Positions 1 to 6,179 of a stretch of 64,000 bases of DNA are shown in pieces. This stretch comes from Escherichia phage vB_EcoM-pEK20. The stretch's first letter is position 1; every line of letters starts with the position of its first letter. The stretch lies in sequence record MZ868638.1. One strand, given 5' to 3'. The position numbers and the translations under genes were made by a program. The notes under the pieces are model-generated. The model made no database searches, had not been told where the DNA came from, and saw only the letters and a program-made list of their open reading frames with translations.

Positions 1-33
1 AACATTTAAAACAGGAACTTGGAAAGCGTATAT

Positions 34-315
34 ATGAAAACATATAGTGAATTTTTATCAGAATCTATTCTTAACGAAGCTACTGACACATTTGCAACTA
101 AGCTAGGTGCAGCTTTGGTTGAAGCTGAAAGTTTATTAGCACGTATTTCTGAACTTGCTAGTAAGATAGATACTCGCAAATTTGAGCGCACCAGTGATAT
201 CGTTAAGCTTGAAGCCTTGTTGCGTATGTGCGATAAACCGGAAGAAATCGCTAAGAACGGCTCGCTGATGAAACAACGTCTTGAAAAATATATTTCAGGC
301 GCTTCAGAAAAATAG
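34..315 (+). CDS. Internal-protein-like, capsid-targeted (N-terminal CTS MKTYSEFLSE)
   Basis: ORF 19-315, internal ATG at 34; N-terminus matches T4 internal protein capsid targeting sequence MKTYQEFIAE with LxE prohead protease site; sits upstream of denV like ipII/ipIII. Confidence 0.5.
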   Translation: MKTYSEFLSESILNEATDTFATKLGAALVEAESLLARISELASKIDTRKFERTSDIVKLEALLRMCDKPEEIAKNGSLMKQRLEKYISGASEK

Positions 316-316
316 T

Positions 317-346
317 GTTTACTTCCTCCAAGGGTTTTGATACTAT
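317..346 (+). promoter_or_regulatory. T4-type early promoter (GTTTAC -35, TACTAT -10); spacer TTCCTCCAAG is inverted repeat of RBS region CTTGGAGGAA at 361-370
   Basis: GTTTAC at 317-322, 18-nt spacer, TACTAT at 341-346, immediately upstream of denV. Confidence 0.45.
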
Positions 347-373
347 ACATTCATCAACTACTTGGAGGAAATT

Positions 374-787
374 ATGACTCGTATCAATTTAACACTTGTT
401 TCTGAACTGGCCGACCAACATCTTATGGCTGAGTATCGTGAATTACCACGCGTATTTGGTGCAGTCCGTAAACATGTTCAAAACGGTAAACGTGTAAAGG
501 ATTTTAAAATCTCTCCAACATTTATCTTAGGCACAGGTCACGTAACATTCTTTTACGACAAACTCGAATTTTTACGTTTACGCCAAATCGAGCTAATCGC
601 TGAATGCTTGAAACGTGGTTTCAAAATCAAGGACACGACTGTCCAGGATATTTCCGACATCCCTGCCGAATTTCGTAATAATTATGTCCCGTCCGAAGCG
701 TCCATTGCGATAAGTCAAGCACGCTTAGATGAAAAAATTGCTCAACGTCCGACTTGGTACAAATACTATGGTAAATCAATTTACTAA
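374..787 (+). CDS. denV: Endonuclease V, pyrimidine-dimer DNA glycosylase / AP lyase
   Basis: Protein [35 protein letters not shown]... is near-identical to T4 DenV as recalled; start at internal ATG 374 of ORF 362-787. Confidence 0.95.
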
Positions 788-793
788 GGAAAA

Positions 794-910
794 ATGAAAA
801 TGTATCAAGAATTTATCATTGAAGCAGAGGCCAAAGGTCCTAAAGTAGATGTTGACGATATTGGATATGATTTTAACAACTTCGGAATTATTTCTGGCGG
901 TAAAGCTTAA
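794..910 (+). CDS. Small CTS-tagged peptide (38 aa), internal-protein-like
   Basis: ATG 794, MKMYQEFIIEAEAKGPK...; same N-terminal motif as neighbouring ORFs; below the 60-aa cut-off of the ORF track. Confidence 0.35.
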   Translation: MKMYQEFIIEAEAKGPKVDVDDIGYDFNNFGIISGGKA

Positions 911-913
911 ACG

Positions 914-943
914 GTTTACGCTTAAGTATTAATATGGTATAAT
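914..943 (+). promoter_or_regulatory. T4-type early promoter
   Basis: GTTTAC 914-919, TATAAT 938-943, upstream of ORF 974. Confidence 0.4.
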
Positions 944-973
944 TGCTCTATCAAAACAAACAAGGAAACAAAA

Positions 974-1288
974 ATGAAAACCTATAAAGAATTTATTGCA
1001 GAATCCGCCAACCAACGCGTTGAAGGTGGTTATATTTGGATTGAACAAGTTGAGCCACCGAGCCGCACTTCTACAGGTAAATGGAAAATTACTGTTGATG
1101 GTCCTGGTGGTAAACGTAGGACTCTTAAAGAAATTAATGGGTACTATGAAGAAGCTCTTTCGGATGCAGGAACTTACATGATGCAAATCATGATTAAAAA
1201 CCCTGAAAACCGTTTTGCAGCTAAAGTCTTCCGCCGTATTGGTAATAAACTTTATGATGCATATTCTAAAAACTTCCCTAAAGAATAA
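974..1288 (+). CDS. Internal-protein-like, capsid-targeted (CTS MKTYKEFIAE), 104 aa
   Basis: N-terminal CTS motif; rest has no family I can name. Confidence 0.5.
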   Translation: MKTYKEFIAESANQRVEGGYIWIEQVEPPSRTSTGKWKITVDGPGGKRRTLKEINGYYEEALSDAGTYMMQIMIKNPENRFAAKVFRRIGNKLYDAYSKNFPKE

Positions 1289-1314
1289 CATAAATTAAAA
1301 CAATAGGAAAAAAA

Positions 1315-1617
1315 ATGAAAACATATCAAGAATTTATTACTGAAGCGCGAGTGAGTGCAGGTAAATTAGAAGCCGCTATAAATAAAAAGGCCCATTCATT
1401 TCATGATTTGTCCGATAAAGACCGTAAGAAACTTGTAAGCCTTTATATTGACAAAGAGCGTATTCTCGCTCTTCCTGGCGCTAATGAAGGTAAACAGGCC
1501 AAGCCTTTGAATGCCGTCGAAAAGAAAATTGATAACTTTGCTTCTAAATTCGGTATGTCTATGGATGACCTTCAGCAAGCGGCTATCGAAGCAGCTAAAG
1601 TAATTAAAGGTAAATAA
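1315..1617 (+). CDS. Internal protein (T4 IP family), CTS MKTYQEFITE
   Basis: 100 aa; N-terminus and body resemble T4 internal protein sequences as recalled. Confidence 0.55.
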   Translation: MKTYQEFITEARVSAGKLEAAINKKAHSFHDLSDKDRKKLVSLYIDKERILALPGANEGKQAKPLNAVEKKIDNFASKFGMSMDDLQQAAIEAAKVIKGK

Positions 1618-1619
1618 CA

Positions 1620-1649
1620 GTTTACTTTCTCCTAGAATTGTGATAGTAT
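1620..1649 (+). promoter_or_regulatory. T4-type early promoter
   Basis: GTTTAC 1620-1625, TAGTAT 1644-1649; precedes denV-like remnant. Confidence 0.4.
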
Positions 1650-1674
1650 ATTCATAATTACTTGGATGGGTAAA

Positions 1675-1804
1675 ATGACTTATATTAATTTGACTTTAGT
1701 ATCTAAATTTGCTGATCAACATTTAATCGCCGAATACTGTGAATTGCCACGTGTTTTTTGGTATAATTCGTAAACACGTGGCAAAAATATTTACATTCAA
1801 ATAA
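1675..1804 (+). pseudogene. denV-like 5' remnant (N-terminal ~43 codons, frameshifted)
   Basis: [28 protein letters not shown] matches DenV residues 1-28; a T7 run at 1754-1759 shifts frame, +1 frame continues FGIIRKHV (DenV FGAVRKHV) then stops at 1802-1804. Confidence 0.6.
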
Positions 1805-1946
1805 AATGGGAACAACCTGGACCTCATGATTCTATGAGGGATTCCCGCCAACCTGTAATAAGGTCGAGCCCAAGTGCGGTAATGGGTAAATACAGAAATG
1901 GACAATTCATGCGCCACGGAACGGCCCCAACCTTAAGAGAAACTAA

Positions 1947-2486
1947 ATGAGAACATTTTTAACCGGACCTTATCTATCCCTGATGAATGCTTTTACACAC
2001 CATTCTGATGCTAGAGTAGAAGAAATTTGTAAGAACGGTTATGCCCCACCATTTGAAGACGTACTCAAGCAGTACTGTACACTTCGTTTAGACGGTGGCA
2101 GACAATCCGGTAAATCAATTGCTGTGACTAATTTTGCTGCTAATTGGTTGTATGATGGCGGAACGGTTATTGTTCTTTCTAATACTTCAGCTTATGCTAA
2201 AATTTCTGCTGGCAACATTGAAAAAGAATTTTCTCGTTATTCTAGCGACGATATTCGATTCCGTTTATTTACTGATTCTGTTCGTAGTTTTATTGGTAAT
2301 GAAGGACATAAATTCCGTGGATTAACACTTTCTCGTATTCTGTACATAATTGACGAGCCTATTAAAGCTCCTGATATGGATAAGATTTACGACATCCATA
2401 TTAAAACAGTCCAACACTGTTGCAAAAGCAAATATTGCATCGGCGGTAATGCTCGTCCTCAATTTTTTGTGATTGGAATGCAATGA
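1947..2486 (+). CDS. Small P-loop NTPase (Walker A GGRQSGKS, Walker B ILYIIDEP)
   Basis: Motifs read from translation; family not assignable by eye. Confidence 0.4.
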   Translation: MRTFLTGPYLSLMNAFTHHSDARVEEICKNGYAPPFEDVLKQYCTLRLDGGRQSGKSIAVTNFAANWLYDGGTVIVLSNTSAYAKISAGNIEKEFSRYSSDDIRFRLFTDSVRSFIGNEGHKFRGLTLSRILYIIDEPIKAPDMDKIYDIHIKTVQHCCKSKYCIGGNARPQFFVIGMQ

Positions 2487-2791
2487 TGACCGCTATTGAA
2501 GTTTTTGAGTACTGTTATAACAGCCCAGTATGCAATAAAAGGGCCCTTGTAGAAAATTATGAGATTTACCATTTTAAACCTAAACGATACCGTTTGACTA
2601 AAGGTCCGTTCGCAGGGCAGCAGGTTCTTTGTACTGCTCCTAATGCACGGTTGATGACTAGTATTCCACATTTCAAAATGGAATTTATTGATGGGCCATT
2701 TAAAGGATTAATCACTCAAAGTTTAATGGCGTTTAATTCCGACCCATTTTTGATTAAAGAAAAAACTTGGATAAATTTATTTTCTAATTGA
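2483..2791 (+). CDS. Hypothetical protein, start overlaps stop of upstream NTPase (ATGA)
   Basis: ORF with overlapping start/stop suggesting translational coupling. Confidence 0.3.
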   Translation: MMTAIEVFEYCYNSPVCNKRALVENYEIYHFKPKRYRLTKGPFAGQQVLCTAPNARLMTSIPHFKMEFIDGPFKGLITQSLMAFNSDPFLIKEKTWINLFSN

Positions 2792-2797
2792 GGTTAT

Positions 2798-3160
2798 ATG
2801 AAAGCATATCAAATTCTTGAAGGTGAACATAAAGGCACTATTTATTTTGAAGACGGTACTCAAGCCCGGATTATTGTCTCTAAGACTTTTAAAGAAGACA
2901 CTATTGTAGACCCGGAAATTTTCTACGGTTTGAATGCTCGTGAAATTGAAATTGAACATCAACCTAAAGTTAAAATTGAAGGTGGTCAACACCTGAACGT
3001 TAACGTTCTGCGTCGCGAAACTCTGGAAGATGCAGTTAAGCATCCAGAAAAATATCCGCAGCTGACCATCCGTGTATCCGGTTATGCAGTTCGCTTTAAC
3101 TCTCTGACTCCGGAACAGCAGCGCGACGTTATCGCTCGTACCTTTACCGAGAGTCTATAA
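2798..3160 (+). CDS. Autonomous glycyl radical cofactor (GrcA/YfiD-like)
   Basis: C-terminal ~58 aa [59 protein letters not shown] matches E. coli GrcA as recalled, including the glycyl-radical motif RVSGY. Confidence 0.85.
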
Positions 3161-3384
3161 TGGCTAAATTGATTATAGAAGGGTCTGAAGATGTTTTAAA
3201 ATGTTTTGCCGCCTGGTTTAGTTGCCCAGGCGAGCAATCATTCATTGAAGCATTTAGAACGGGTGATATTACTGGAAACTATCCGACAACTGATATCACT
3301 GTACGTGGATATGGTATTAATGAGCCTATCCAATTGGTCGAATATGACCTTGCCACCGATGAGGAAATTCCTTATGTCGATTGA
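3160..3384 (+). CDS. Hypothetical protein
   Basis: ORF only. Confidence 0.3.
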   Translation: MAKLIIEGSEDVLKCFAAWFSCPGEQSFIEAFRTGDITGNYPTTDITVRGYGINEPIQLVEYDLATDEEIPYVD

Positions 3385-3619
3385 AGACATCAAAGGCTAC
3401 AAGCCGCATACCGATGATAAAATCGGTAAAGTGAACGCTATTAAAGATGCCGAAGTTCGTTTAGGACTTATTCTAGACGCCCTGGCAGAAGAAGCATTAT
3501 CAGCAAATACTCCTGAAGCTCTGACGGCTTTGTCCCAATTGAACTGTGCTAAAGAACGCCTAAAGGAAGCTAGTATGTGGGCTTGTCGTGCGGTATTTCA
3601 ACCAGAGGAAAAATACTAA
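3374..3619 (+). CDS. Hypothetical protein
   Basis: Internal ATG of ORF 3206-3619, overlaps upstream stop. Confidence 0.3.
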
Positions 3620-3918
3620 TGGCTCAAATCCTATCAGGCTTTGGAACTCATTATGAAGCATCTCGACGCATAACTGAAAGCAATCCTTTTGGCCTTGTTC
3701 CGAAGCACAAGAAAATTCAAAGCCTTGATGACTTTGAGAATCGCCTATGGGCCCTCTTTAATGAGTACAAGGCATATCTGAAAGAAGACGCTGACGATTG
3801 TCTTGAAGAAGATGAGATTGCGTATTACGAACAACGCCTTGAACAGCTCAAGAACTTCCACCAGGTTCGTGACGAAGTATCTAAAGCAGTTAAAAAGTTA
3901 ATTCCTTTCAAAGAGTAG
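3619..3918 (+). CDS. Hypothetical protein
   Basis: ATG 3619 overlapping upstream stop (TAATG). Confidence 0.3.
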
Positions 3919-3946
3919 TTTACTTCTCCTCTAGTTGTGTTACTAT
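3918..3946 (+). promoter_or_regulatory. T4-type early promoter with stem-loop (PeSL-like)
   Basis: GTTTAC 3918-3923, TACTAT 3941-3946; arm TTCTCCTCTAGTTG 3924-3937 pairs with CAACTAGAGGAGAA 3955-3968. Confidence 0.45.
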
Positions 3947-3974
3947 AGACCTGTCAACTAGAGGAGAAATCAAA

Positions 3975-4433
3975 ATGACTATCAATTCAGACGTTTTTAT
4001 CCGCCGCAATAAACTCCGTCGAATCTTTGAAACGGAGTTCCGCAAAATAAATGCCAGTATAAAAGATGCTGCAAAGTCTCTTGGACTACCGGGCTTTCAT
4101 ATCAAGTATTCTCAACATCTCTTAGATCGTGCCATCCAGAGAGAAATAGATGAGAATTACGTTTTTGAATTATTTCATAAAGTAAAAAATCATGTTAAAG
4201 AAGTTGCAGAATTTTTATCAATGCCGGCACGTCCAGATGTTGATGAAGATTTTGTCGAAGGTGTCGAATATCGCCCAGGCCGTTTAGAAATAACTGATGG
4301 AAATCTTTGGTTAGGACTTACAGTTTGTCGCGAAAATCCAGCATTCAAAATGAAGACTCTTCAATGCAGAATGGCTATTATTAACAATAAACGACTACCA
4401 GGAAAAGCTTCTAAAGCAGTGATTAAAATCTAG
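3975..4433 (+). CDS. regB: RegB-like sequence-specific endoribonuclease
   Basis: 152 aa; resembles T4 RegB as recalled and lies between denV and tk. Confidence 0.55.
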   Translation: MTINSDVFIRRNKLRRIFETEFRKINASIKDAAKSLGLPGFHIKYSQHLLDRAIQREIDENYVFELFHKVKNHVKEVAEFLSMPARPDVDEDFVEGVEYRPGRLEITDGNLWLGLTVCRENPAFKMKTLQCRMAIINNKRLPGKASKAVIKI

Positions 4434-4441
4434 AGGTAAAC

Positions 4442-4984
4442 ATGAGAAAAGCACTACTCGCTGGTCTATTTGCTCTTTCATTATCAGCACATAGCTCCGA
4501 GCATACTTTTAGTAATGTCCAACTCGATAACTTGAATTATGCTTATCAGTTTGGGGAACAGTTTTCTAAGGATGGAAAATTTAAAACGCATGAAAATATG
4601 CATAAGAAAGGACTTGGATACATAATGGCCGCAATACTATGGCAGGAATCATCTGCCGGTATTAATCTTAAAGATAAGAAAGGTCACCATGCGTATGGAA
4701 TGTTCCAAAATTATCTACCAACAATGAGGGCAAGAATTAACCAACTTGGTTATAATATGACTGATGCCCAAATTAAGAAAATGCTATCTAAGCGGTCTAA
4801 TTCAGCCAGATGGGCTTATATAGAATTTTCTTATTGGTTAAATATACATAACGGGGATATAAGGAAAGCCTTATCCTCATATAATGCGGGATGGAAGACA
4901 AGTGCTGGAAGTAAATATGCTTCTGAAGTCCTAGAAAAGGCTAATTACCTTAAATCAAATAAACTACTGGAAATAAAAGAATGA
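4442..4984 (+). CDS. Periplasmic lytic transglycosylase-like protein with signal peptide
   Basis: Signal peptide MRKALLAGLFALSLSA; Slt-type motifs E-S-S (WQESSAG), GMFQ and YNAGW. Confidence 0.5.
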   Translation: MRKALLAGLFALSLSAHSSEHTFSNVQLDNLNYAYQFGEQFSKDGKFKTHENMHKKGLGYIMAAILWQESSAGINLKDKKGHHAYGMFQNYLPTMRARINQLGYNMTDAQIKKMLSKRSNSARWAYIEFSYWLNIHNGDIRKALSSYNAGWKTSAGSKYASEVLEKANYLKSNKLLEIKE

Positions 4985-5328
4985 CCAAAATGTTGGCTTT
5001 AATAGTTGGCTTGGTTTCATTTAACGCTCTTGCTAATACTACATATACTGATGTAACGGAGTATACAAACAGAACGGCGTCTGATTATTGTGGTAAAAGT
5101 CAAGAGTGTAAAGTAGATTTTTCACAAAAATTGTTATATGCGTATAAAGACGGAGAAAAAGACGGGGCGTCTAGTAGGTTCAAGGCGTCTACTTTAATTA
5201 AAAGATACTATAAAAAATGGCAAATATTAGAATGCTCGGTGGCGGAACCTAAAGATAAGGCGGCATGCAATTCTATGGTGGACCGTCTAGTTGACTCTTA
5301 TACTAGAGGACTTGTAGCAAGTGATTAA
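4981..5328 (+). CDS. Secreted small protein (signal peptide, Cys-containing)
   Basis: N-terminal hydrophobic signal MTKMLALIVGLVSFNALA. Confidence 0.35.
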   Translation: MTKMLALIVGLVSFNALANTTYTDVTEYTNRTASDYCGKSQECKVDFSQKLLYAYKDGEKDGASSRFKASTLIKRYYKKWQILECSVAEPKDKAACNSMVDRLVDSYTRGLVASD

Positions 5329-5788
5329 AAACTATATCAAGGGCGATATTGTCGCCCTGTTTTCTAAAGGTAATAATATTGCTCATGGGTGCAATTGTTT
5401 TCATACAATGGGCGCCGGTGTAGCAGGTCAATTGGCAAAGGCTTATCCAAAAATTTTAGAAGCCGATAAACTTCAAACCGAATTCGGAGATGAGTCTAAA
5501 CTCGGGACTTATTCGGTTTATGAAAAATATTTTAAGACCCATAAAGCTTATTGCTTTAATCTTTATACACAGTTTGAGCCGGGACCTAATTTTGAGTACT
5601 ATGCTTTAATGAATTGTATAATAGAATTAAATGAATTCGGAAAAAATAAGATAACAAAGCCTGTAATTTATATGCCAAGAATTGGTGCAGGTATAGGTGG
5701 TGGAAACTGGGATATCATTGAAGAAATTCTTGATACATATTCCACTAAACTAGAAATTGTGATTGTTGATTGGGAACCATTATTATGA
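5321..5788 (+). CDS. Macro-domain protein (ADP-ribose binding / hydrolase family)
   Basis: GDIVALFSKGNNIAHGCNCFHTMGAGVAGQL and PRIGAGIGGGNW resemble macro-domain motifs; GTG start. Confidence 0.5.
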   Translation: MIKNYIKGDIVALFSKGNNIAHGCNCFHTMGAGVAGQLAKAYPKILEADKLQTEFGDESKLGTYSVYEKYFKTHKAYCFNLYTQFEPGPNFEYYALMNCIIELNEFGKNKITKPVIYMPRIGAGIGGGNWDIIEEILDTYSTKLEIVIVDWEPLL

Positions 5789-5997
5789 ATGTGCATTACC
5801 CACATCCGTTTGATCCTAAAAATAAAGCAGTAATTATTCGTCAATGGGAACGCATTTGTCGTACTAAATGTCCAATTAATAGTCCACATGATGTAGATAA
5901 AGACTACATCGGAACATTCGTTGAATATACCTTTATTGATAAGAAAGGTCGTAAACAACATGTAGAAGAATATTGCTTAAAGGTTACATGGTTATGA
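5785..5997 (+). CDS. Hypothetical protein
   Basis: ORF only. Confidence 0.3.
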   Translation: MNVHYPHPFDPKNKAVIIRQWERICRTKCPINSPHDVDKDYIGTFVEYTFIDKKGRKQHVEEYCLKVTWL

Positions 5998-6179
5998 GTT
6001 TAAGTAAAGAACAAAAAGACATACTATTTTCTCTTATTCACGAAGTTATGGATAAAAATAGTGAATTGGAAAAAGTTTGCGATGAATGCGGTCCTTTTAA
6101 TACCGACGAATACGAAGAACTGTGTAAAGATTTCGACGATAAAGAACAAGAACTTATTGATTATATAAATTCCTTATGA
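5994..6179 (+). CDS. Hypothetical acidic protein
   Basis: ORF only. Confidence 0.3.
   Translation: MSLSKEQKDILFSLIHEVMDKNSELEKVCDECGPFNTDEYEELCKDFDDKEQELIDYINSL

Follow-up and report, generated by a model that had tools for sequence, protein, structure and literature searches.

How did a phage genome with an intact denV gene come to carry, further along the same locus, the beginning of a second one behind an early promoter of its own? In T4, denV encodes endonuclease V, a pyrimidine-dimer DNA glycosylase that acts in UV repair. The second denV beginning lies in a 64,000-nucleotide stretch of DNA from Escherichia phage vB_EcoM-pEK20 (MZ868638.1), which is referred to here as the window. An initial annotation of the segment had described a dead second promoter-plus-denV-5' unit in a hyperplastic region, which is the internal-protein (IP) locus, had read it as a recombination scar, and had taken the unit to be a copy. 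The dead unit and the scar both hold up in the analysis below, while the copying does not.

The open reading frames and their relatives place the start of the window inside the IP locus of a T-even phage (Table 1). As judged from its sequence, the window comes from an RB69/JS09-like phage of the genus Mosigvirus that has retained an intact denV of its own. The resident DenV scores 52.5 bits against Pfam PF03013, matches T4 endonuclease V (PDB 2END) at E 1.8e-82 and is 99% identical to RB69 DenV. Its promoter matches the T4/PST early-promoter consensus TTTACW-N17-TAYWAT (PMC4122927) and is embedded in a predicted stem-loop (-19.1 kcal/mol, z -4.1). At the other end of the locus, vs.8 is 96.9% identical to RB69, compared with 88.0% to JE01. 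As a side observation, the shortened ip gene behind the resident denV differs from RB69 ORF125c (261 bp) by a 144-bp in-frame deletion, apparently between CCTAAA repeats; the deletion is present in JS09 and TU01, and AV110 is without it and has a full-length ORF125c.

Table 1. Features of the IP locus and the denV-vs.8 segment (positions in the window).
Feature	Position	Strand	Details
ip gene	19-315
Early promoter of resident intact denV	317..346	+	GTTTAC 317-322, then TTTACT-N17-TACTAT
Resident intact denV, RB69 type, 137 aa	374..787	+	PHROG 1183 E 2e-62; Pfam PF03013 E 6.6e-14
ORF125c-like ip gene remnant, shortened, 38 codons	794-910
ip10	974-1288
ipII internal-protein gene, left part of the putatively imported Tequatrovirus-type block	1315..1617	+	301/303 identical to JE01 ipII
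Flagged stretch with denV stump	1620-1804
Early promoter of former second denV	1620..1649	+	GTTTAC 1620-1625; TTTACT-N17-TAGTAT; TG 1641-1642
Predicted stem-loop over promoter spacer and former Shine-Dalgarno site	1621..1674	+	-15.9 kcal/mol, z -3.2
denV 5' fragment, gene nt 1-110 plus one extra T	1675..1785	+	101/111 identical to JE01 denV
T6 homopolymer, +1 frameshift relative to T5	1754..1759	+
GGCAAA, single remaining copy of the 6-bp direct repeat at the deletion junction	1780..1785	+
Last 15 nt of former denV (1786-1800), out of frame, then TAA (1802-1804)	1786..1804	+
Conserved leader between denV and vs.8, candidate structured RNA	1807..1927	+
vs.8, P-loop protein of unknown function, RB69-type backbone again	1947..2486	+	PHROG 1488 E 2e-78

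A second early promoter had been claimed upstream of the DenV-like codons, and a T4-type early promoter is indeed found there. Its hexamers, TTTACT (1621-1626) and TAGTAT (1644-1649), are separated by a 17-nt spacer and agree with the T4 consensus, equivalently written GTTTAC ... TAttaT, at 11 of 12 positions with one mismatch. The promoter is identical at 55 of 57 positions to those of the full-length denV genes of JE01 and VIPECOOM01, the intact JE01 denV is preceded by the same hexamers at the same spacing, and the equivalent site in phage SA79RD is an annotated T4 early promoter. A generic sigma-70 scan listed neither denV promoter (by our own count the stump promoter reaches 8/12, where the tool's cut-off is 9/12), so the promoter calls rest on the T4-specific consensus and on orthology.

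The stem-loop predicted over this promoter takes in the former Shine-Dalgarno sequence, GGAG, which now reads GGAT (1664-1667). Equivalent hairpins are predicted in T4, in JE01 and at the resident copy, with different but complementary arms. In T4 (genes e, soc and I-TevI), such hairpins block translation from read-through transcripts, and translation is freed on transcripts that start inside the hairpin. With its promoter adjoining a predicted stem-loop, the stump unit is built like a promoter/stem-loop (PeSL) cassette; the boundaries of the block and of the deletion described below do not coincide with that cassette. A likely residual role of the stump region would be to start early transcripts into the leader and vs.8.

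What follows the promoter is recognizably denV. The first 28 codons had been called a clear DenV N-terminus, and from the ATG at 1675 they share 82% identity with the resident DenV (tblastn E 4e-10). A frameshift had been placed at a run of seven Ts; the shift is real, and the run contains six Ts rather than seven. The +1 frame past the run reads GIIRKHVA, corresponding to DenV residues 29-36. In its present state the ORF from ATG 1675 stops at TAA 1771-1773, and the DenV-like reading is over by 1804, as had been stated, ending at TAA 1802-1804. Once frame-corrected, the stump peptide aligns with the endonuclease V family PHROG 1183 over positions 1-37 (E 1.6e-13), and this match, together with 91% nucleotide identity to JE01 denV, establishes the homology of the kept segment to denV. 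Against PF03013, the corrected 42-aa peptide scores 18.8 bits, where the gathering cut-off is 23, and covers profile positions 1-35 of 81; it falls short of a full-length domain of ~138 aa above the gathering threshold. All DenV residues beyond 36 are missing, and those that remain carry the substitutions R3Y, E11K, L12F, R22C and V31I. Among Thr2, Arg3, Arg22, Glu23 and Arg26, the catalytic and DNA-binding residues of T4 endonuclease V, the stump keeps Thr2, Glu23 and Arg26 and has Tyr for Arg3 and Cys for Arg22. These two arginines are DNA-contact residues of the T4 enzyme (structures 2END and 1VAS are among the matches). We infer that the stump would encode no enzyme.

Comparison with other T-even phages indicated which denV this had been. 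The promoter of the stump (57 nt) is 96.5% identical, and its first 110 coding nucleotides are 91.0% identical, to the Tequatrovirus denV allele represented by JE01 and VIPECOOM01, here called JE01-type, and its coding part is 79% identical to T4 denV. T4, JE01 and VIPECOOM01 share the gene order ipII-promoter-denV-leader-vs.8, in which denV occupies the same slot as the stump. In a four-way alignment, the window and T4 run collinear across ipII and the promoter and into denV for ~110 nt; after a gap, collinearity resumes just past the T4 denV stop codon. From these identities, the gene order and the alignment, the stump can be placed in the T4 denV slot and assigned to the JE01-type allele.

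The gap has the form of a deletion between short direct repeats. The hexamer GGCAAA occurs twice in JE01 denV, at gene offsets 104 and 396; what the stump lacks is denV nt 105-396, 292 bp reaching from one repeat to the other, and the window holds a single copy where JE01 has one at either end. Alignment to JE01, VIPECOOM01, TB004, HX01 and BYEP01 assigns the nucleotides behind the remaining copy to the 3' end of denV. The former denV stop codon TAA has become CAA at 1798-1800, a change common to the stumps that keep the 3' end, and TAA 1802-1804 is the stop of the stump ORF in relatives with five Ts. Since 292 is not a multiple of three, the denV tail is no longer read in frame, and the stump ORF runs to 1802-1804. 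That the denV 3' end is still present at 1786-1800 speaks against the proposal that a promoter-plus-5'-coding unit was the piece that moved. The junction is identical in JS09, AV110, TU01 and ESCO47, and an exact search of IMG/VR for this junction (type A) returned no contig. The 292-bp deletion is the primary lesion, and the T-run frameshift is secondary to it, as relatives with T5 are equally shortened.

The stump has also decayed. Relative to JE01, nine substitutions were counted in 110 nt of the stump versus two in 303 nt of the adjacent ipII. Six of the nine fall within non-synonymous codon changes and three are synonymous; some of the differences from JE01 are allelic, with TB004 sharing I31 and the H34 codon. 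In order of increasing decay, the genomes that share the junction are TU01, ESCO47, JS09, and the window together with AV110.

To place the stump in its surroundings, the locus was compared by BLAST with RB69, JE01 and T4. Positions 1-1345 of the window are RB69-like (97-98%), apart from the internal deletion in ORF125c. Positions 1346-1847 find no match in RB69, which carries an unrelated ip gene, ORF123c, at this place and matches again from 1848. Positions 1279-1785 are 94.9% identical to JE01; within them, ipII is 99.3% identical to JE01 and matches T4 ipII at 292 of 303 positions. The left switch falls at about 1279-1345, in the ribosome-binding site and capsid-targeting 5' end that ip genes share, and inspection of the leader put the right-hand switch at about 1911-1925. 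The crossovers therefore map to the ip 5' end and the vs.8 leader instead of the promoter/stem-loop cassettes through which recombination had been suggested.

We consider it highly probable, taking the explanation as a whole, that a T4-like block was imported and that its denV was then lost by microhomology deletion. As the mosaic boundaries suggest, a ~0.9-kb Tequatrovirus block running from ipII through the denV promoter and a complete JE01-type denV into the 5' part of the vs.8 leader would have been imported; the block now spans about 1300-1920. It would have replaced the resident ip gene (RB69 ORF123c) by homologous exchange, with one crossover in the conserved ip 5' end (about 1279-1345) and the other in the conserved leader (about 1911-1925), leaving a phage with two denV genes. 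The incoming denV lost nt 105-396 in a 292-bp deletion between the GGCAAA direct repeats, an event resembling slipped mispairing or recombination at microhomology. Still in place are the promoter, 36 initial codons, a single copy of the repeat and, out of frame, the final 15 nt. The stump then drifted, gaining R3Y, E11K, L12F and R22C, the change of GGAG to GGAT and, in the lineage of the window and AV110, the extra T. The promoter and stem-loop may still start transcripts that run into the leader RNA and vs.8.

Import first and deletion second is the order we infer, since no intermediate with two intact copies was found; the block could have been imported already deleted. The search used a chimeric query of the resident denV through ip10, ipII and the promoter to a complete JE01-type denV. 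Among 50,697 phage genomes, no record had both copies intact in this arrangement, and the best coverage, 85%, corresponded to the deleted state.

Independent losses of the same allele in the same slot were observed in other phages. HX01, W143 and Tequatrovirus BYEP01 have lost 347 bp of JE01-type denV between GACTCG repeats and keep the last ~70 nt, and TB004 has lost 187 bp between AATGG repeats. In phi25-307 and SA79RD, a deletion between GGTAAA repeats has removed the whole of denV together with two-thirds of the leader on its 5' side. The promoter is left in place by each of the deletion types A, B, C and D. One imported denV allele has been shortened on at least four separate occasions, each time at 5-6-bp repeats. 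Further states are seen in IMG/VR contigs, in which only the last ~20 nt remain or a 3' piece of the RB69-type allele is present, and stumps assignable to both denV alleles occur in the IP locus. One such T-even contig (L018 1318-1425) holds a 36-codon 3' fragment of an RB69-type denV.

Not all of these phages have an intact gene to fall back on. ESCO47, which has the window's stump, and TB004, which has another, show no intact denV between e and vs.8 in the stretches covered, which reach back to the e lysozyme gene in ESCO47 (L013 1-1933) and 3 kb upstream in the unannotated TB004 record (L006 1-3433). On these stretches near e-vs.8, the two may be natural DenV-less phages. A stump without an intact denV implies that the loss is independent of redundancy and that denV is dispensable. 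T4 denV mutants are viable and UV-sensitive.

The gene has also been found in two places within one genome. BYEP01 (L008) carries a JE01-type denV at 2556-2972, directly after gene e, and then ip10-ipII followed by a type-B stump in the T4 slot (3614-3894). With two JE01-type units in one phage, denV has been duplicated or relocated within one allele lineage too. JE01, TB004 and VIPECOOM01, whose records each showed two matching places, were suspected of having two denV copies, and each was found to have a single denV-like region in the locus examined. Separately, two small ORFs of the vs.3-vs.5 region are annotated as pyrimidine dimer DNA glycosylase (HX01 gp073, L003 4759-5058; ESCO47_00050, L013 2813-3031). 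A tblastn search with DenV gave no match to either, and the label may be an annotation artefact or denote a distinct family.

The leader adjoins the stump, bounds its synteny on the downstream side and contains the right-hand crossover. The element at 1807-1927 appears to be a previously undescribed structured phage RNA. As coding sequence the leader shows no conservation: in T4 it is joined to vs.8, the window carries a 38-codon ORF of its own there, and the reading frames in JE01 and RB69 meet early stops. Given these differing frames, and given that most annotators start vs.8 at the methionine of MRTFLTG, the overlapping 38-codon ORF (1834-1950) is probably spurious and the T4 vs.8 annotation (216 aa, L002 3316-3966) probably has an N-terminus extended too far, into the RNA-like element. 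The leader has matches in more than 1000 phage records. Its core (1851-1885) has the form ACCTGTAATAAGGTCGAGC-N5-6-GCGGTAA, and the same core occurs in rV5-like Vequintaviruses, about 550-600 nt upstream of a tRNA cluster, and inside the tRNA cluster of Pseudomonas phage PsgM04F. Nine Campylobacter phage records were listed in the BLAST tally, at tally level only.

Evidence for structure comes from the variation among copies. The covariance model matches the leader with 75.7 bits (E 2e-17). The closing helix is formed by at least ten different but complementary sequences, and a variable base pair of the second pairing appears as A-U, U-A, U-G, C-G or G-U and is canonical or wobble in 35/35 distinct sequences. 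In an alignment of 28 distinct copies, which was fitted to the model and so is biased toward structure, 90.6% of cells were paired compared with 28-48% in slid controls. Eleven pairs showed double changes, and the covariation score was 0.18 versus 0.076 for shuffles (0/500 reached it) and at most 0.069 for slid controls. The folding energy of the single sequence is unremarkable (z 0.37), and a mixed MAFFT alignment yielded a poor structure in RNAalifold. Nothing relevant came up in Rfam scans of 1-6000 and 1780-1970, no family matched any leader copy, and a tRNA scan of 1600-2100 was empty. An alternative RNAfold fold of the core was set aside, as natural variants, compared by eye and untallied, apparently contradict it; the extra matches of a relaxed motif pattern look like chance and probably lie inside coding sequence. 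In bacterial genomes, the core 18-mer was absent save for two chance matches lacking the rest of the motif, and literature searches on the RNA core sequence and on JS09/denV found nothing. The core is gone in the natural deletion of SA79RD, so the element is dispensable. Two IMG/VR T-even contigs have weak second matches to the RNA model about 300-400 nt from the main copy (L035 9896-9983, 17 bits; L027 10236-10312, 11 bits), which may be degenerate second copies.

Could the leader be the reason that the stump is still there? Selection on the promoter and transcribed spacer, for expression of the leader RNA and of vs.8 to regB, is compatible with import followed by deletion, as it concerns only why the stump persists. 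That deletion types A, B, C and D spare the promoter agrees with such selection, as does the T4 arrangement, in which the leader directly follows the denV stop codon and co-transcription is probable. denV transcripts are also detectable early in T4 infection (PMC1702504). Against such selection, RB69 and the IMG/VR contigs L014, L016, L017 and L018 have an ip gene directly before the leader, and RB69-type arrays have no promoter directly before it. Moreover, SA79RD kept the promoter but lost most of the leader, and selection on deletion endpoints could not be shown from only four cases. We regard this reading as possible and somewhat doubtful. Equally tentative is the suggestion that regulation is all that still works in the interval: the early promoter of the dead gene might now mainly transcribe the ~120-nt element at 1807-1927, with the denV stump as a tolerated spacer in an RNA-expression unit.

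The origin proposed initially was local duplication: by way of promoter/stem-loop cassettes, a copy of the resident promoter with the first ~30 codons of denV would have been placed 1.3 kb downstream, and a frameshift would have followed. Two promoter-plus-denV-5' units do lie 1301 bp apart, with 78% mean column identity over a 243-column alignment, and the BYEP01 genome holds two units of one allele type. IP loci are, besides, known for promoter/stem-loop-associated shuffling (PMC2839356). Aligning the flagged unit to the run at 317-483, the check that had been proposed, yielded 71.7% identity in the promoter and 71.2% in the coding part (79/111 over 1675-1785). A copy of the resident gene is not supported by these values, as the stump is 71-72% identical to the resident unit versus 91-96% to the JE01-type allele. 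The stump also keeps a denV 3' end and a microhomology junction, its flanks are those of the T4 slot, and the crossover points lie outside the promoter. We consider a local duplication very improbable, and prefer import of a JE01-type denV.

An artefact, with the extra T as a homopolymer error or the deletion as an assembly collapse hiding a longer ORF, seems just as improbable. Homopolymer runs are error-prone, and JS09, the closest relative in this segment, has T5, as do TU01, JE01 and T4; ESCO47 reads GTTTT. However, AV110, which was sequenced independently and is otherwise distinguishable, carries the same T6, and the 292-bp junction recurs identically in the four genomes named above. It had been argued that finding six Ts and an intact second denV would overturn the initial reading; the sequence already has six, and five would restore only a 42-codon stump (the ORF is 42-45 codons in JS09 and TU01, which have T5). 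With the same T6 in AV110, a distinct genome by its full-length ORF125c, the extra T is most likely a real, inherited, secondary mutation.

Least credible is a functional mini-gene, whose product, an N-terminal DenV peptide of about 32-45 aa, would have taken on a new role: the stump is annotated as a CDS in JS09, TU01 and ESCO47 and keeps its promoter and ATG, but the window and AV110 have a broken frame, the GGAG of the Shine-Dalgarno site is gone, the substitutions look neutral (6 non-synonymous versus 3 synonymous), other phages keep a different part of denV or none, and the Pfam score stays below the gathering cut-off.

The segment at 1620-1804 is an ordinary pseudogene scar in a locus already known as a recombination hot spot, and a well-resolved instance of known processes. 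The denV stumps offer a clean natural example of T-even gene loss after cassette exchange that can be ordered by decay. By itself the stump is of little weight, and the adjacent RNA-like element at 1807-1927 is the more promising lead.

Set beside T4 denV (PF03013; PDB 2END, 1VAS), the stump has 36 initial codons homologous to DenV residues 1-36 and a matching early promoter, stem-loop architecture and genomic slot. Unlike the T4 gene, it lacks 102 of 138 codons, has Arg3 and Arg22 replaced, and has had its frame shifted twice, by the 292-bp deletion and by the additional T. The short 'DenV' CDS of other phages (JS09_060, TU01 QYC95579 and ESCO47_00047) share its junction and locus at 95-99.6% identity. 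They differ in having no extra T (TTTTT in JS09 and TU01, GTTTT in ESCO47) and an ORF of 42-45 codons, whereas the ORF is shorter in the window and AV110, both of which have T6. In JS09, TU01 and ESCO47 these CDS are wrongly annotated as a gene, and a pseudogene label is due.

Deletions between short direct repeats in T4 were reportedly described by Singer and Westlye in 1988. The denV deletions resemble these in that 5-6-bp direct repeats flank the loss and one copy is left, in four independent cases here; they differ in being natural variants of wild phages and not laboratory rII or HPR deletions. According to PMC2839356, T4 short-repeat deletions and a GGGC/GCCC motif were described by Mosig et al. 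1998; that motif is absent at the denV deletion junctions. The same source credits Repoila et al. 1994 with polymorphism of the internal-protein locus and its promoter/stem-loop cassettes, and promoter/stem-loop elements (PeSLs) have been proposed to drive shuffling of the IP locus (PMC2839356, PMC4122927). The locus described here resembles that system in lying in the hyperplastic region between e and vs.8, in its swapped ip genes and in having early promoters inside stem-loops. It differs in that the exchange took place at the ip 5' coding end and the leader, and in that the stump itself arose from a short-direct-repeat deletion and not from excision of a cassette at promoters.
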